Positions 3,927 to 19,588 of a DNA stretch of 64,000 nucleotides are shown one piece after another. Made by a program: the position numbers and the translations under genes. Source of the DNA: an uncultured Candidatus Saccharibacteria bacterium (GTDB lineage: Bacteria > Patescibacteriota > Minisyncoccia > Phycocordibacterales > UBA9973); the NCBI GenBank assembly GCA_964573395.1, contig CAZNJI010000001.1, positions 34,996 to 98,995 on the forward strand, read 5' to 3'. The notes beneath the pieces were generated by a model. It was not told where the DNA came from. It made no database searches and worked only from the letters and a program-made list of their open reading frames with translations. Numbering within the stretch: position 1 is the stretch's first letter; each line of letters begins with the position of its first letter.

Positions 3927-4723
3927 AACCAAAAATCTCAGTTATTATGTCTGTTTATAATGGCGTTCGACACGTGAAAGAGGCAATAAATAGCGTGTTG
4001 CAGCAAACTTTCACAGATTTTGAGTTCCTTATTATTGATGACGCTTCACGTGATGATACTGCATCTCTTTTAGAAGAATATAAAAATCGTGACGGTAGAA
4101 TTAAAATAATTACGAATCAACATAACATCGGGCTTACGAAAAGTTTGAATAAGGGAATTAAAGAATCTCGCGGTGCGTATATTGCTCGATTGGATGCGGA
4201 TGATATTTGTTTGCCAGAACGGTTTGCTAAACAAGTTTCTTTTATGGAAAATCATCCGGTATGTGGCATGACAAGCGTATGGGCAGAGATAATTGATGAT
4301 TCTGGGAATTATAAAAGAACCATTAAGTATCCTACGGAAAATAATAAACTCAAAAAAGCACTAATTCATTACAATCCTTTTTTTCATTCAGGATTACTGG
4401 TTAGAAAAAGCGTATTTGATACCGTAGGATTGTATGATGAGGATTGGAAATTTGCTCAGGACTATGAACTCTATTTTAGAATTTCAAAAAAATTCGATAT
4501 TGCCAACATACCAGAGGTGTTACTGAAGTATCGAGAGAGCGCTCGCTCAGTTACCGGCAGTAAAAATCGAAAACAGATTTCTTTTGTTTTAAGAGCAAAA
4601 CGGAAGGCAATAAGGGATGGGCAGTACGCAAAAATTCATTATTTTTCACTATTTCGGAATTATCTCGCATGGATCTTACCAGTTGCAATGAAGAGATTTT
4701 TGAAGAATCTTTTTAAAATATAA
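3923..4723 (+). CDS. Glycosyltransferase family 2
   Basis: The sequence KISVIMSVYNGVRHVKEAINSVLQQTFTDFEFLIIDDASRDDT is a canonical GT2 N-terminus with the DxD motif ARLDADD. Its start overlaps the upstream stop as ATGA. Confidence 0.85.
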   Translation: MKPKISVIMSVYNGVRHVKEAINSVLQQTFTDFEFLIIDDASRDDTASLLEEYKNRDGRIKIITNQHNIGLTKSLNKGIKESRGAYIARLDADDICLPERFAKQVSFMENHPVCGMTSVWAEIIDDSGNYKRTIKYPTENNKLKKALIHYNPFFHSGLLVRKSVFDTVGLYDEDWKFAQDYELYFRISKKFDIANIPEVLLKYRESARSVTGSKNRKQISFVLRAKRKAIRDGQYAKIHYFSLFRNYLAWILPVAMKRFLKNLFKI

Positions 4724-5838
4724 TGAAAATTTTATACTTTATTACCAAATCAGAGCTTGGAGGGGCGCAGACACATGTGTCCCAGTTGATGGAATACATG
4801 CACAGTCAAGGCCATACGGTGGGGGTGAGTGCGCATCCTGGAGGTCCTCTTGAGCAGCGAGCCCATGAGCTGGGAATAAAATTTTATCCTAATCGTTTCT
4901 TTAGGAATACCTTTAATCCATTAAGTATAGTAAACGCTTTTCGCACCGTTAAAAAAGCCACAAGAGATTTTCAGCCTGAACTCGTCCATGTGCATAGTTC
5001 GATGGCTGGTTTTATTGCTCGGATAGCGATTCGGGGTAAGATCGCTACTATTTTTACAGCACACAGTTGGGCATTTACTGATGGTGTGTCCGTGATGCGA
5101 AAATACATTGCAATCATTGCTGAAAAATGTGCTTCTTATTTTACGAAAAAAATTATTTGCGTATCTGAATTTGATAAACAACTTGCGCTCCGATATCGTG
5201 TTGCACCGTCCGATAAACTTGTCACTATTTATAATGGAGTACAGAGCGTTCAAGAGATTGAGAAGTTGGCTCATACCCCTCTTAGGGCAATTACTGTTGG
5301 GAGATTTGCACACCAAAAAAGGTTTGATTTACTCATTACTGCTATTGCGGCACTTCCAGATTTTTTTAAAAAAAATATTCACCTGAACATTGTTGGTGAT
5401 GGAGAACAAAAACAGATGCTCCTTGATCTGGTTGTAGAAAAAAAACTGACAAAACAAGTTTCTTTTCTCAGTGCTGTTGAAAATACGGAGGTGTTTCAGT
5501 TACTGAATTCTTCTGATATGTTTATTCTTATTTCGAGATATGAAGGATTTCCGATGACCATACTTGAAGCAATGGCTGCAGGAGTGCCAGTCATTGCGTC
5601 TTCTGTTGGAGGTATTCCTGAGGCAATCGATGATACCTGTGGGATTCTTGTTGAAAATACTATCGAAAGTATTGCAACGGCACTTATGAAAATGATTACC
5701 GATAGCGAGCAACGAATTATAATGGGTATTTCCGCAAAGGAACGGTTTGAAAAATTGTTTTCACTAAAACAATGTTTAAAAAATACTGAAGCTGTGTATG
5801 ATGAAGTGCGTTTAGATAGTACGAGCCGACTTCCGTAA
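4723..5838 (+). CDS. Glycosyltransferase family 4 (GT1 fold)
   Basis: The N-terminus MKILYFITKSELGGAQTHV and the C-terminal motif EGFPMTILEAMAAGVPVIASSVGGIPE are both typical of GT4. Confidence 0.85.
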   Translation: MKILYFITKSELGGAQTHVSQLMEYMHSQGHTVGVSAHPGGPLEQRAHELGIKFYPNRFFRNTFNPLSIVNAFRTVKKATRDFQPELVHVHSSMAGFIARIAIRGKIATIFTAHSWAFTDGVSVMRKYIAIIAEKCASYFTKKIICVSEFDKQLALRYRVAPSDKLVTIYNGVQSVQEIEKLAHTPLRAITVGRFAHQKRFDLLITAIAALPDFFKKNIHLNIVGDGEQKQMLLDLVVEKKLTKQVSFLSAVENTEVFQLLNSSDMFILISRYEGFPMTILEAMAAGVPVIASSVGGIPEAIDDTCGILVENTIESIATALMKMITDSEQRIIMGISAKERFEKLFSLKQCLKNTEAVYDEVRLDSTSRLP

Positions 5839-13414: not shown

Positions 13415-14172
13415 CGTTCCACTTATATGTTTACTCGAGAAACCACTATAAAAAATAGGCCGTAAGACCATTTTTTTGTGGGTGCGGCCGCCGAAAGGCG
13501 GCCTTTCTCGTGGAAAGCAGATAAGGTGCGTGATCGTTGAAAACAGAACCCTATCCTTCGGAGTGTGCATGAGTAATGCAGACAGCAGGCTGAAGAGATA
13601 GCGTGAGGGTCGGATTCCGAGCGGTCGGATGAAGGCCCGAAATGATTTCTAGATTTCCTAATAGGAAATTTAAGAGCATACGGTGGATGCCTTGGTTCAA
13701 AATGGCGATGAAAGACGCGGCTTAGCGGCGATACGCTTCGGGGAGGTGCTATGCAACCTACGATCCGGAGATCTCTGAATGAGGAAACTCATATCGATAG
13801 ACTCGATATACCTGAACTCGTAAGTAGTACAGGAGCAAACCTGGGGAAGTGAAACATCTCAGTACCCAGAGGAAAAGAAAACAATGAGCGCGGATGCGTT
13901 CGAATTCCCTCAGTAGCGGCGAGCGAAAAGGGAACAGCCCAAACCGTTTTGTGCTTGCACGAAGCGGGGTTGTAAGGTAATGGCGTCGTTTTACGAAAAG
14001 AGTTAACAAATGTGTGTATAGAAGAAGTTGTTGGAAACCAACACCACAGCGGGTGATAGTCCCGTATTCGAAATGCACTACATCTCTTCTGTCATTATTC
14101 TTGAGTACTCCAGGACACGGATAGCCTGGAGGAATCCACCAGTACTAACTGGTAAGGCTAAATACATTTTGA

Positions 14173-14214
<42 letters not shown>

Positions 14215-14792
14215 GTCCGAAAGGACAGTGAAATAGACCTGAAACCGTATGTTTACAAGGAGTCGGCGCGGAGATTTATCTCCGCCACGGCGTGCCTATT
14301 GAAGAATGAGCCAACGAGTTTATGTGTGCGGCTCGGCTAAGTCGTAAAGCGATGGAGCCAGAGCGAAAGCAAGTGTGAATAGCGCGTAATTGGTCGTACA
14401 CATAAGACCCGAAGCCAGGTGAGCTACCCATGAGCAGGGTGAAGGCGCAAGAAATTGCGCTGGAGGCCCGAACCGGTTTGTCGTACAACGCATTCGGATG
14501 ACTTGTGGGTTGGAGTGAAAAGCTAATCGAACCTGGTAATAGCTGGTTCTCTCCGAAATAGCTTTTGGGCTAGCGTCATGTGTTCCTCTTGGGGGTAGAG
14601 CACTGGAAGGTTTCGACAGGGAGCAATCTCGCGAAACCTATCAAACTCCGAATACCAATGACTAAAAACGTGGCAGTTAGACTACGGGGGCGAAGCTCCG
14701 TCAGTCAAAAGGGAAACAGCCCATGATCGCCGATTAAGGTCCCTAAATCAATACTAAGTGCACTCAAGGAGGTGGAATTTCTCAGACAATGA

Positions 14793-14824
<32 letters not shown>

Positions 14825-14903
14825 GAAAGCGTAACAGCTCACTCATCAAGAGATCTTGCGCCGTAGATAATCGGGGCTTAAGTGTATTACCGAAATTGAG
14901 GGT

Positions 14904-15236
14904 TTGTAGATTTCATAAAGGAAGTGGAAACTTCCAAAAATTCTTGCACTGTCTTGCCAGTGCAATACGTATCATAGCGATGAGCAGTTAGTTGGGTTTT
15001 GGGATATATGCAAAATGCAGCTGGTGCTTTGTGAGGATAAGAAGTAAGACACCTTATTGCTCTAAAGCAAAAAAACATCATCCGATAACGTATTGCCTGG
15101 CCCGAATTACGTGAATTTGGAAATTGTGTAAGATTGGTTCTTTCTGGTAGCGATTTCGCTATCAGATATTACAGGGGAAGATAAAAATCGATTGTTTGGT
15201 TTCGAACATCTTCCCCTCCTTTATGAAGTCTACAAG
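14904..15236 (+). other. Stem-closed intervening sequence (IVS or expansion) replacing 23S helix 45 (E. coli about 1164-1185)
   Basis: The flanks align to E. coli CACCGAAGCUGCGG and GGUAGGGGAGCGUUCUG. The insert is bounded by the complementary arms TTGTAGATTTCATAAAGGAAG (14904-14924) and CCTCCTTTATGAAGTCTACAAG (15216-15236). It is about 333 nt long and has no convincing ORF. Confidence 0.65.
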
Positions 15237-15981
15237 CGGTAGGAGAGTATTCTGCTCTCGCTGTGAAGGTTAAGGGGTGACCCGTACTGGAGCGTGCAGA
15301 AGTAAGAATGTTGGCACAAGTAACCGCAAGCAGGGTGAGATCCCCTGCCGCCGAAACACTAAGGTTTCCTGGGCAATGGTGATCATCCCAGGGTTAGTCG
15401 GGTCCTAAGGTAATGACGAAAGTCGCAGCCGATGGACATATGGTTAATATTCCATAACTTCTTTGTTATTCGATGAAGGGACGGAGCGTAGTACATGCAG
15501 CGGATTATTGGATTTCCGTGCACGTGTCGCACATGCTGGGTAGGAAAATCCGCCCGGCTCACTTGAATGTGGAATGCCAGATACGGGCCGTGCCGAGGTA
15601 CGCCAAAGCGAAGTGCATGGAGCAGGCTCCCAAGAAAAGCTTCTAAGATTAGTAACAAAGAACCCGTACCGTAAACCGACACAGGTAGTGAGGTCGAGTA
15701 GACCAAGGCGAACGAGTGAGAGATCCCCAAGGAACTCGGCAAAAAAGCAGCCGTAACTTCGGGATAAGGCTTGCCCTTCTCTACGCAAGTAGAGCGGGGC
15801 CGCAGCGAAAGTATTCCTGGCAACTGTTTATCAAAAACACAGCTCCCTGCGAACTCGTAAGAGTATGTATAGGGGGTGACACCTGACCAATGCCAGAAGG
15901 TTAACTATCGGCGGTATTCAGCACCGAGTCCGGAAAGAAATTTCCTGACCCCGTGCTGAATGCAGATTGATACAAGCCCTG

Positions 15982-16046
<65 letters not shown>

Positions 16047-16679
16047 GCGCACGAATGGTGTAATGACTGGGAAACTGTCTCGGGGATTTGCTCGGTGAAA
16101 ATACAATACCGGTGAAGATGCCGGTTACCTGCAGTTAGACGAAAAGACCCCGGAAGCTTTACTACAGCTTGGGATTGGGTATGTTTGTTTATTGCGTAGC
16201 ATAGGAGGGAGACGTTGAAGCACCGCTTTCGGGTCGTGCAGAGTCGCCAGTGAAATACCTCTCTGTAAATGGGCATATTCTAACCCGTACGGCAAAAACG
16301 TGCGGGAACAGTTCCTGGCGGGTAGTTTTACTGGGGCGGTATCCTCCAAAAGAGTAACGGAGGAGTTTATAAAGGTTAGCTAGGCGCGAATGGAAACCGT
16401 GCCGATAGTGCAATGGCATAAGCTGGCTTGACTGTAAGGGGGACATCCCGAGCAGGTGCGAAAGCAGAACATAGTGAACCGACGGTCCGCATTAGATGCG
16501 GCCGAAGATTAACGGATAGAAGCTACTCCGGGGATAACAGGCTAGTTCCGCCTAAGAGTTCATATCGACGGCGGAGTTCGGCACCTCGATGTCGGCTCAC
16601 CTTATCCTGGGGCCGGAGAAGGTCCCAAAGGTTTGGCTGTTCGCCAATTAAAAAGGTACGCGAGCTGGGTTCAGACCGT

Positions 16680-17114
16680 CCTGAGGCTTAATATTGTTTA
16701 CAATATTGGCCGAAAGACCGTCTGAATCCCGAGGCATCACGACAAAAAAGAATTTTAAGAATTCACGGAATAATTTAGAAAAGATATGTTTTAGTCTTTT
16801 CGTCTATGAAAAAGATAATATAAAAAGAGACCATCTTATTACGGCGGTCGCCATTGGCAACAATGGATGACATGCTCAACTGATATCGGGAAAGCCCAGC
16901 TGTAGTTTCATTAAAAACTACGGCTGGGTAATTCCGAGGGAAGGTGAATCAGTTAGTAGTAAGTCGTTAGTAGTTAGTAGAAAAAGCAATTGCAATTTCC
17001 TACTTACTACTTTCTACTACCTACTTGCTCGTTCCCGCCCGTAGAGACTAATTGTTGAGGCACTCTCTGAGTGCAAGTTATAGTCCAATCCACTTAGTAA
17101 TAAGTGAAAAGATG
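16680..17114 (+). ncRNA. Group I intron in 23S rRNA at the site equivalent to E. coli U2593 (the I-CreI/Cr.LSU site); no ORF
   Basis: The exon flanks gggttcagaccgt | cgtaagacaggttggtc align to E. coli GGGUUUAGAACGU|CGUGAGACAGUUCGG, so the 5' exon ends in U and the intron ends in G. An R element GTAGAGACTAA lies at 17041-17051 and an S element AAGTTATAGTCC at 17075-17086; these form P7. A P/Q pair ATCGGGAAAGCCCAGC / GGCTGGGTAA forms P4. GGCGGTC at about 16847 can act as an internal guide sequence pairing with exon GACCGU through a U-G wobble. The boundary is precise to within 2 nt. Confidence 0.8.
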
Positions 17115-17470
17115 CGTAAGACAGGTTGGTCTCCTATCTACTGCAGGCGTTGATACTTGAGGAGATTCGTTTCTAGTACGAGAGGACCGAAATGAACGAA
17201 CCTCTGGTGTATGGGCTCTTTCGCCAGAAGGACCGCCCAGTAGCTATGTTCGGAATGGATAACCACTGAAAGCATCTAAGTGGGAAGCCAGCTCCAAGAT
17301 TAGGTATCGTTGAGGGCCCTAGGAGATGACTAGGTTGATAGGCATTACGTGGAAGCGCAGCAATGCGTTGAGCGGAGATGTACTAATTGCCCGACTCCTA
17401 TTAGGAAATCTGGAAATCACATGAACACGCAAAACGTTATAGCAATATGACACAGAGTACCTTGAGTGCT

Positions 17471-17585
17471 CTGTGTTGGTGATTCGTCGCAGGGGTCACA
17501 CCTCTTCCCATTTCGAACAGAGAAGTTAAGCCCTGTAGAGCCGATGGTACTTTTTTTAAGGGAGAGTAGGCAGTCGCCAGCACAG
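17471..17585 (+). rRNA. rrf: 5S rRNA
   Basis: Helix I pairs CTGTGTTGGTG with CGCCAGCACAG. The conserved internal blocks CCCATTTCGAACAGAGAAGTTAAGCC and GAGAGTAGG are present. The gene lies 60 nt downstream of the 23S end. Confidence 0.85.
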
Positions 17586-18466: not shown

Positions 18467-19588
18467 ATGAGACGGTTTGTAGAAACAATTGATTGGTGGC
18501 TTTTGGCCGCAATAGTGCCTGTCATGGCTGCGGGGCTGATCACGATGACATCCTTTTCCGGGGAGACGTCTTTTTTTCTGCGCCAGCTTATTTGGGTGCT
18601 GGCTTCTTTTGCGCTCGCGCTGTTCCTCTCTCGGGTCGACATGAGGTTTTTGCGGCAATCCCGGGTTCTGATTATTTTTTTCTCCATTACGATTTTACTG
18701 CTCGGCATCGTTCTTGTTGCCGGAAAGACGGTAAAAGGATCGCAGAGCTGGCTCGACTTCGGCGGCATTTCATTCCAGCCGACCGATCTGGTGAAGCTTT
18801 TGGTAATCGCCATGCTGGCAAAATATTTTTCCCGGCGCCACGTTGAAATAAAAAATCCGAAGCACCTGTACATTTCAGTGCTCTACGCGCTCATTCCGGT
18901 TGGGTTCATTTTGCTGCAGCCCGATTTCGGATCGGCGGTCATCATTATTTCGCTGTGGATTGGTATGGCGCTCATTGCCGGCATTTCAAGAAAGCATCTT
19001 CTCTTCATTGGATTGGCAGCACTGTTAGTTTTCGTGGCCGGGTGGTTTTTCTTGTTCAAGCCGTATCAGAAAGCCCGGATTGTTTCGTTCATTAATCCGA
19101 TGAGCGACATTCGCGGCAGCGGGTACAATGCGTATCAATCGATGATCGCGGTCGGGTCGGGGCAGGTGCTCGGGAAGGGGGTTGGATACGGAACCCAGTC
19201 GCGCCTCTCATTCCTTCCCGAATACCAAACCGACTTTATCTTTGCCGCTTTTGCCGAAGAGTGGGGATTCGTCGGATCGCTCATTTTGCTTGCGTGTTTC
19301 GGGATTATTATCTGGCGGGTTATTCTCCATGCCATGCGGGGCGCGACGAATTTTGAAACGCTGTTTTGCGCCGGGTTCGCCATATTCATCATTGCGCACT
19401 TGCTAGTGAACATTGGGATGAACGTTGGACTCATGCCGGTAACGGGAATTCCGTTGCCGTTCATGAGCTACGGCGGATCGCATCTGCTGTCAGAAATGAT
19501 TGGAATTGGTATCATTCTTTCAATGGCTAAATATGAACGAGCGCTTCATCGCGATGACATGAATCGGGAGTTTGTCGGATATGAATAA
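18467..19588 (+). CDS. SEDS-family peptidoglycan glycosyltransferase (FtsW/RodA/SpoVE)
   Basis: There are 10 transmembrane segments. The conserved C-terminal block is GIPLPFMSYGGSHLLSEMIGIGIIL, and DFIFAAFAEEWGFVGS is also present. Confidence 0.9.
   Translation: MRRFVETIDWWLLAAIVPVMAAGLITMTSFSGETSFFLRQLIWVLASFALALFLSRVDMRFLRQSRVLIIFFSITILLLGIVLVAGKTVKGSQSWLDFGGISFQPTDLVKLLVIAMLAKYFSRRHVEIKNPKHLYISVLYALIPVGFILLQPDFGSAVIIISLWIGMALIAGISRKHLLFIGLAALLVFVAGWFFLFKPYQKARIVSFINPMSDIRGSGYNAYQSMIAVGSGQVLGKGVGYGTQSRLSFLPEYQTDFIFAAFAEEWGFVGSLILLACFGIIIWRVILHAMRGATNFETLFCAGFAIFIIAHLLVNIGMNVGLMPVTGIPLPFMSYGGSHLLSEMIGIGIILSMAKYERALHRDDMNREFVGYE

Follow-up and report, generated by a model that had tools for sequence, protein, structure and literature searches.

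A helix-45 insert in the 23S rRNA gene of a Paceibacteria genome: a probable excised intervening sequence with a 21-bp closing helix shared across a family

The 23S rRNA gene and its helix-45 insert

[quoted passage not shown] Rfam recognises a complete bacterial large-subunit (LSU) rRNA at 13658–17406 (RF02541, 2355 bits, model positions 1–2925), as does block alignment to the Escherichia coli 23S gene. The gene is 3749 nt long, compared with 2906 nt in E. coli; it is intact, and its extra length is that of the helix-45 IVS and of a group I intron, a second and larger insertion (16680–17114) that the first-pass annotation of this DNA had overlooked. A 5S rRNA gene lies downstream (17475–17582), and Rfam found no 16S gene within the 64-kb window, where the 23S–5S pair is unlinked to 16S.

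The insert was located by two alignments. With blastn against the E. coli 23S gene (locus L001), E. coli positions 422–1146 matched 14154–14881 and positions 1188–1434 matched 15238–15486, and MAFFT placed the extra bases at 14902–15237. They fall between E. coli positions 1146 and 1188, which is helix 45, and replace the tip of the hairpin; helices 9, 25 and 45 are the sites at which IVSs recurrently replace a hairpin tip. These results confirm that the insertion at helix 45 is real. The first-pass annotation had put the insert at 14904–15236 in the same helix, coordinates that are correct within 1–2 nt, and had called this a classical IVS site, in line with the helix-45 IVS of Coxiella at the same place (PMC4990558).

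In the minimum free energy (MFE) fold the ends of the insert form a closing helix between a 5′ arm at 14902–14922 (GTTTGTAGATTTCATAAAGGA) and a 3′ arm at 15217–15237 (TCCTTTATGAAGTCTACAAGC), both on the forward strand. The helix comprises 21 contiguous base pairs (bp), two of which are G-U (U14903-G15236 and U14911-G15228), and the first ~5 nt of the 5′ arm are the base of native helix 45. Complementary termini forming a long stem of about two helical turns or more mark an IVS, and here the stem is backed by covariation among homologous arms. The terminal inverted repeat noticed in the first pass therefore exists, but it had been described as 20 bp with one G-U pair: the 3′ arm given there (CTTCCTTTATGAAGTCTACAA) is absent, the true sequence being CCTCCTTTATGAAGTCTACAA (CCTCC..., not CTTCC...), one base off, and with the real 3′ arm the supposed 20th pair becomes an A·C mismatch. 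The whole element folds to −131.6 kcal/mol and is far more stable than shuffled sequences (−81.1 ± 5.3 kcal/mol; z = −9.6), while the interior alone reaches −100 kcal/mol, with a z of −6.9 for the sense and −4.9 for the antisense strand.

Relatives and the family sharing the closing helix

The RodA/FtsW-like protein encoded downstream of the 5S gene (18467–19588) has matches at 80 GTDB genome loci, the best at 74% identity, all of them from Paceibacteria/Parcubacteria of the CPR, Nomurabacteria included. The exact protein was found only on short Logan contigs that end at the rRNA, and these yielded no closer 23S relative. The gene order 23S–5S–hypothetical protein–RodA–PAP2–SecD–SecF is conserved across Paceibacteria genomes (window 13658–17582; loci L007–L083), and many of the RodA-like loci therefore carry a homologous 23S gene. 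Many assemblies break inside the 23S gene.

Helix 45 was compared in 22 syntenic relatives between the conserved flanks ...CCGAAnnTGAGG and GGTAGGAGAG.... The native hairpin of 21–31 nt, beginning GCTT.../...GAGC, is present in 14 of them; the remaining eight carry inserts of 63, 114, 146, ~150, 157, 166, 248 and 736 nt. The window's closing stem (GYTTGnnnnnTTCAnnnAGGA / TCCTnnnTGAAnnnnnCAAGC) is common to six of these eight, with interiors that differ, and blastn found no match of the window insert among the loci of these relatives. The inserts of L014 (4663–4822, 157 nt) and L083 (4477–4625, 146 nt) have closing stems unrelated to the main family, which indicates that the helix-45 site has been occupied more than once.

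Such sporadic presence is the pattern of an IVS, and it bears on the alternative that the 336 nt are kept in mature 23S rRNA as a folded surface extension of helix 45, comparable to eukaryotic and Asgard expansion segments. A conserved expansion segment would be found, and could be aligned, throughout its lineage; 14 of the 22 close relatives lack the insert and the interiors are unalignable, and this patchiness and complete interior turnover argue against one. Lengths of 60–802 nt with no shared sequence are likewise unlike a structural role, and a helix fixed at 21 bp better suits a nuclease substrate than a variable extension. Insertions in CPR rRNA genes are also reported to be missing from transcripts, by Brown et al. 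2015 as cited in PMC11270868. Retention would fit the tolerance of helix 45, a surface helix, to change (PMC4990558), as well as the folding of the interior, which exceeds that of shuffles and does so more on the sense strand, and the good folding of interiors throughout the family. On balance we consider retention unlikely.

Metagenome contigs were then pattern-scanned with the 5′ rRNA flank and the conserved parts of the 5′ arm, which gave 111 loci; including the earlier loci, the family numbers 112 inserts, of which 86 are unique. Their lengths have a median of 282 nt, to which the window's 336 nt come close, making it a typical member. Since the 3′ arm lay outside the search pattern, complementarity across the family is an independent test of the helix. 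In the 84 distinct arm pairs, pairing holds in 99.7% of cells, and double compensatory changes occur at 10 of the 21 pairs (237 cells). The covariation score of 0.454 compares with 0.237 in shuffles and was reached by 0 of 500 of them, and pairing falls to 36–45% when the register is slid. The helix is exactly 21 bp long in 53 of 85 unique inserts, and pairing ends abruptly at position 22. Judged by their sequences, these inserts are one large family, closed by a helix that is conserved in sequence and fixed at 21 bp, and with otherwise unrelated contents.

Across positions 1–21 of the helix there are 130 G-U pairs and only 3 A-C mismatches, an asymmetry which shows that selection acts on the rRNA-sense transcript and not on inverted repeats in DNA. 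We therefore give almost no credence to the idea that the insert is a non-autonomous mobile DNA element whose 21-bp inverted repeats are the terminal repeats of a transposase rather than an RNA helix. Although terminal inverted repeats and a patchy distribution would suit such an element, and IVSs are generally thought to spread horizontally (PMC11270868), the G-U excess shows that one strand's transcript is under selection, not duplex DNA ends, 112 of 112 copies sit at one rRNA site, and neither the arms nor the interior have another copy in the window or the loci.

Inside the conserved helix, sequence turns over: among 80 interiors there are 60 sequence clusters, and the window copy is a singleton. 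Neither blastn nor nhmmer found a homologue of the window interior among the 111 other interiors, and none was found in all 195 loci (1.7 Mb), the rest of the window or GenBank phages. An exact 19-mer match in IMG/VR (L196) falls within a coding region that has no relation to the insert and was set aside as chance. Good folding is common to all the interiors (median z about −5 to −6), which makes the strong fold of the window interior a family trait. A search of the family interiors for RNase P conserved-region motifs was negative.

The terminal processing stem of the window's 23S rRNA (cTAGATTTCCTAATAGGAAAt; 13650–13668 / 17396–17412) is closely similar to the 5′ arm of the insert (GTAGATTTCATAAAGGAAG; 14905–14924). 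This likeness is limited to the window's subclade (the window, L011, L012, L112, L123 and L176); a nuclease site in common, gene conversion or chance could each account for it. The IVS stem as a general copy of the terminal processing stem was rejected, the family mean z being 1.3.

Interiors of the inserts and proposed processing of the precursor

The 294-nt interior of the window copy (14923–15216) has a strong fold but no family-matching open reading frame (ORF), transfer RNA (tRNA) or Rfam family; all the features described here lie on the forward strand. The MFE fold predicts a small hairpin just inside the 5′ arm (14925–14936) and a large multi-branched domain of ~190 nt (14942–15133), with an 8-bp closing helix and an internal 5+12-bp long-range helix, on which MFE and centroid structures agree. 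We found no homologue of this domain, which is hence without covariation support. It is followed by a boxA-like word, GTTCTTT (15137–15143), that the predicted fold leaves largely unpaired, except that the first two bases sit in a weak 2-bp helix. Immediately 3′ of the word, a 9-bp hairpin (CTGGTAGCG-ATTT-CGCTATCAG; 15144–15165) is evident both from the sequence and in the MFE fold, and a junction hairpin with a 9-bp stem (GGGGAAGAT/ATCTTCCCC; 15174–15216), predicted by MFE and matching a family-wide hairpin, abuts the 3′ arm.

The longest ORFs in the insert span 31–40 amino acids on the sense strand and 64 on the antisense strand, and none matches Pfam at E ≤ 1, which upholds the first-pass view of an insert without an ORF. 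In the ORF list (31–64 amino acids) and the Pfam results there was no ORF or remnant of S23p / 23S_rRNA_IVP (PF05635), and none of a homing endonuclease. ARAGORN and Rfam found no tRNA in the window insert. At E ≤ 10 over 14890–15250, the comparison with Rfam proposed in the first pass returned noise only (CsrB, 7.4 bits; CssrB, 10.9 bits), and this permissive search lends no support to a ribozyme, riboswitch, RNase P, signal recognition particle RNA, 6S RNA or tmRNA in the insert.

These negatives bear on the further alternative that the insert is an intron, self-splicing or protein-dependent, that is removed with ligation of the 23S halves. Group I introns abound in the 23S genes of CPR bacteria (PMC11270868), and the window's own gene holds one at 16680–17114. 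However, group I, group II and ribozyme families are all unmatched at E ≤ 10 (for group I, RF00028 over 14890–15250), and the insert lacks a homing endonuclease ORF. Its 21-bp end-to-end pairing is the architecture of an IVS and not the P1/P10 guide arrangement of an intron, and the site it occupies is a hairpin tip that varies, not a conserved target for homing. We regard splicing as highly improbable.

GTTCTTT is the commonest 7-mer in the family interiors, occurring in 48 of 86 where shuffles predict 3.2 (15-fold; consensus wTTGTTCTTTw), and GTTC[TC]TT occurs in 51 of 86. The 16S–23S spacer words of E. coli and Mycoplasma are boxA antitermination elements of the rRNA (rrn) operon. GTTCTTT is one base off the E. 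coli word TTGCTCTTTAA, found upstream of 23S in L001, and is identical to a word (GTTCTTTGAAAAC) within a Mycoplasma 16S–23S spacer primer (PMC3019172). We therefore hypothesise that GTTCTTT acts as a boxA element in the helix-45 inserts. As a boxA of the 23S leader the same word was rejected, since it is found in only 2 of 55 leaders; the leaders mostly carry words resembling GTTCGTT..TTGAAAA, that of the window at 13531–13546 being GATCGTTGAAAACAGA. A second shared feature lies immediately next to the 3′ arm: a hairpin of 6 bp or more, seen in 67 of 79 interiors compared with 25% at control positions. The window copy has both the word and the junction hairpin.

After GTTCTTT, the next commonest interior words are those of the tRNA D-loop and T-loop, the latter in 46 of 86 interiors. 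ARAGORN called 41 tRNAs in 32 of the 86 unique inserts, all on the sense strand. Rfam scores, which cover two inserts, were 59.7–67.2 bits for three tRNAs in L118 (708–1128) and 45.9–50.8 bits for two in L079 (2236–2974), compared with a gathering score of 29; further tRNA-bearing inserts include those of L090, L123, L154, L190 and L195. Sense-strand tRNAs embedded in a 23S precursor, which are non-functional while they remain there, can work only if they are cut out, so at least those precursors, and with them at least a third of the family, would be broken at helix 45. This is a further point against a retained segment. The literature searched, an incomplete set, gave no report of a bacterial 23S IVS that contains tRNA genes.

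Some of the ARAGORN calls are odd. In L118, L139, L161 and others the anticodons include CTA ('Pyl') and TTA ('Stop'), A34 anticodons (AAC, ACT, ACA, AAA, AGG) also occur, and six calls have anticodon loops that are not 7 nt long. These units could be suppressor-like, degenerate tRNA-like or mis-called.

Taken together, these results favour the excised IVS, one of two possibilities raised in the first pass: the insert is absent from 14 of 22 relatives, the family interiors are unrelated and 60–802 nt long, the stem changes in a compensatory manner, and 32 of 86 inserts carry tRNAs. The window element is thus probably a helix-45 IVS of a Paceibacteria 23S gene, excised by an RNase III-type activity to leave 23S rRNA in two non-ligated pieces. 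The insert would be transcribed within the 23S precursor, and its ends would pair into a double-stranded helix of two turns, stacked on the stump of helix 45. A double-strand-specific endonuclease would then cut inside this helix, RNase III being the precedent and a Mini-III-like enzyme another possibility. A fixed, perfect helix of two turns matches the requirements of nucleases specific for double strands, such as RNase III. The ~300-nt interior would be released and probably degraded, leaving pieces of ~1.25 kb (13658 to ~14912) and ~1.75 kb (~15227–17406 minus the intron), which the remaining helix-45 pairs and the tertiary structure of the ribosome would hold together. The family interior may behave like an internal transcribed spacer, with its boxA-like word, its hairpin at the 3′ arm and, in many copies, its tRNA genes, in place of which the window copy would carry a lineage-specific folded domain of ~190 nt. 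Since the strongly constrained helix is shared, tRNA-less members, the window copy among them, are most economically taken to be processed in the same way.

Several points weigh against this interpretation. For the window copy and the family alike, excision, cut sites and fragmentation are predicted from gene sequences, and we infer the cleavage, its enzyme, the fragmentation, the fate of the interior and the function of the boxA-like word. A search for an RNase III signature was negative both in the window and across related loci totalling 1.7 Mb, a sample of rRNA neighbourhoods only that is uninformative on this point. Because a tRNA is lacking in the window copy, the argument that speaks most strongly for excision reaches it only via homology of the stem, and its strong, sense-biased interior fold would equally suit a retained structural segment. 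Finally, the sequence conservation of the 5′ arm is in part ascertainment, because the search pattern fixed part of that arm; the 3′ arm and six free positions are unaffected.

The IVS model could be extended by supposing that the interior, once excised, works as a small RNA in its own right and that the helix-45 site is an expression slot fed by rRNA transcription. The slot holds bona fide tRNAs in relatives, always in the sense orientation, and a boxA-like word as in rrn spacers, and the 14942–15133 domain of the window copy folds strongly and in a sense-specific manner. On the other side, the window interior has no homologue and so lacks the support of conservation or covariation, tRNA-less interiors all differ from one another, which fits neutral turnover, and the IVS RNA of Coxiella is rapidly degraded after excision (PMC4990558). 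A functional RNA in the window copy is therefore possible but doubtful.

The closest parallel to the window element is the helix-45 IVS of Coxiella burnetii (compare those of Leptospira, Salmonella, Yersinia and Campylobacter), in which an extended stem-loop replaces the hairpin tip at the same site. It is 428–444 nt long with a 28-bp stem and a stability of −143 kcal/mol, and is cut mid-stem by RNase III to give fragments of ~1.2 and ~1.7 kb (PMC4990558). The likeness extends to the long, near-perfect end helix (28 bp compared with 21 bp in the window), the stability (−143 compared with −132 kcal/mol), the size of the fragments (predicted at ~1.25 and ~1.75 kb for the window), and a reduced-genome host with a single rRNA copy and group I intron(s) in the same gene (PMC4990558). 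Unlike the Leptospira/Coxiella type, the window insert has no S23p (PF05635) ORF or remnant. In contrast to Coxiella, the closing helix of the present family has a fixed length and a conserved sequence across a very broad range of lineages, with complete turnover of the interiors; RNase III cleavage, demonstrated in Coxiella, is proposed for the window insert by analogy. The insert is long beside enterobacterial IVSs, and to that extent the first-pass description of it as unusually long holds; it is, however, shorter than the Coxiella IVS and near the family median.

The element is ordinary for its lineage rather than unusual, as the first pass had it, since CPR bacteria are known for such insertions: at least one is present in 82% of CPR 23S genes, and 45% of 23S insertions are classed as group I introns (Tsurumaki et al. 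2024, PMC11270868). Both helix-45 IVSs and CPR rRNA insertions are already known, and the window copy is a further member of both. Like the non-intron insertions of that survey (23IS2/23IS4) and of Brown et al. 2015, it has a CPR host, a classical IVS site and no match to an intron model or ORF; 23IS4 is possibly helix 45. The window's gene also has a group I intron at the survey's 2593 site. The surveyed insertions are mostly short (< 200 bp) and their structure is undescribed (PMC11270868), whereas the window insert measures 336 nt, and from sequence we describe a conserved 21-bp stem, a junction hairpin and a boxA-like word, together with the tRNAs that relatives carry as cargo.

Inserts of this family also resemble the bacterial rrn 16S–23S spacer, in which flanking complementary sequences form a processing stem and which has a boxA-type word (E. 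coli TTGCTCTTTAA, Mycoplasma GTTCTTTGAAAAC), the window word being a candidate counterpart with putative NusB/NusE binding, and sense-strand tRNA genes released by processing, which only relatives of the window insert have. They differ from that spacer in lying within 23S, where they split one rRNA, and the window copy lacks a tRNA. The discontinuous LSU rRNA of Tetrahymena mitochondria, with a tRNA gene between its pieces, recalls the tRNA-bearing relatives in having separate LSU pieces and a tRNA in the spacer, but concerns another site and another domain of life. From classical IVSs the family differs in its boxA-like word and frequent tRNA genes, features for which the literature searched gave no report in that class.

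Because many inserts sharing the 21-bp helix hold tRNA genes and a boxA-like word, the 23S precursor in this clade is probably always broken at helix 45, at a site that would work like a spacer. We found no report of such a spacer-like break in the literature searched. More tentatively, and with a good deal of doubt, the Paceibacteria helix-45 insert could be a domesticated internal transcribed spacer rather than a selfish IVS. It would leave a two-piece 23S rRNA and form a slot, made of the 21-bp helix and the boxA-like word, that expresses tRNAs or small RNAs at rRNA level, with cargo swapped like cassettes; the window's cargo would then be an undescribed structured RNA of ~190 nt. What appears new lies at the level of the family (within our incomplete coverage of the literature we found no report of the stem, fixed and conserved in sequence, of its boxA-like word, of a junction hairpin or of tRNAs as cargo), and its wider value lies there too, with the same 21-bp helix closing more than 100 otherwise unrelated inserts. 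If confirmed, the spacer-like break would provide a tangible substrate on which to study how uncultured bacteria with reduced genomes process their rRNA, and it would change CPR tRNA gene counts, given that tRNAs within rRNA genes may be masked.

The group I intron and other length differences

The second insertion of the gene is an ORF-less group I intron of 435 nt (16680–17114) at the E. coli ~2593 site. Its match to RF00028 (23.3 bits, E = 7.5e-4) is below the gathering score yet specific. The junction (...GACCGT|CGTGAGACAG...) was set by the intron-less relatives L074, L062 and L017, and the U/G rule is obeyed, with U preceding the intron and G ending it. Most relatives carry 330–900 nt at this site, which is an I-CreI-type target and a listed group I intron site of the CPR (PMC11270868). 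A helix-45 IVS and a group I intron are both to be expected in a CPR 23S gene, and they explain broken assemblies and the escape of such genes from standard primers and models.

The peripheral region of the intron contains a long hairpin of (TAGT)-like repeats (GTTAGTAGTAAGT...ACTTACTACTTTCTAC) at 16946–17035. Repeat arms like these are also present in L014, in its unrelated helix-45 insert (4700–4726), and elsewhere in the 23S of L112, L158 and L122.

Insertion load varies between close lineages: relatives carry insertions at two further 23S sites that are empty in the window, L033 and L037 at the equivalent of ~16586, and L032, L037, L060, L072 and L083 at the equivalent of ~17178. Smaller length gains of the window gene over E. 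coli 23S were located by MAFFT at 13885–13898 (+14), 13948–13999 (+52), 15601–15614 (+14), 15932–15966 (+35) and 16853–16863 (+11), together with a loss of 12 nt near 15783; the +52-nt gain, which falls close to E. coli position 276, extends a helix considerably. The 5S rRNA is only 108 nt long, which fits the short 5S on record for Parcubacteria (PMC9297842).

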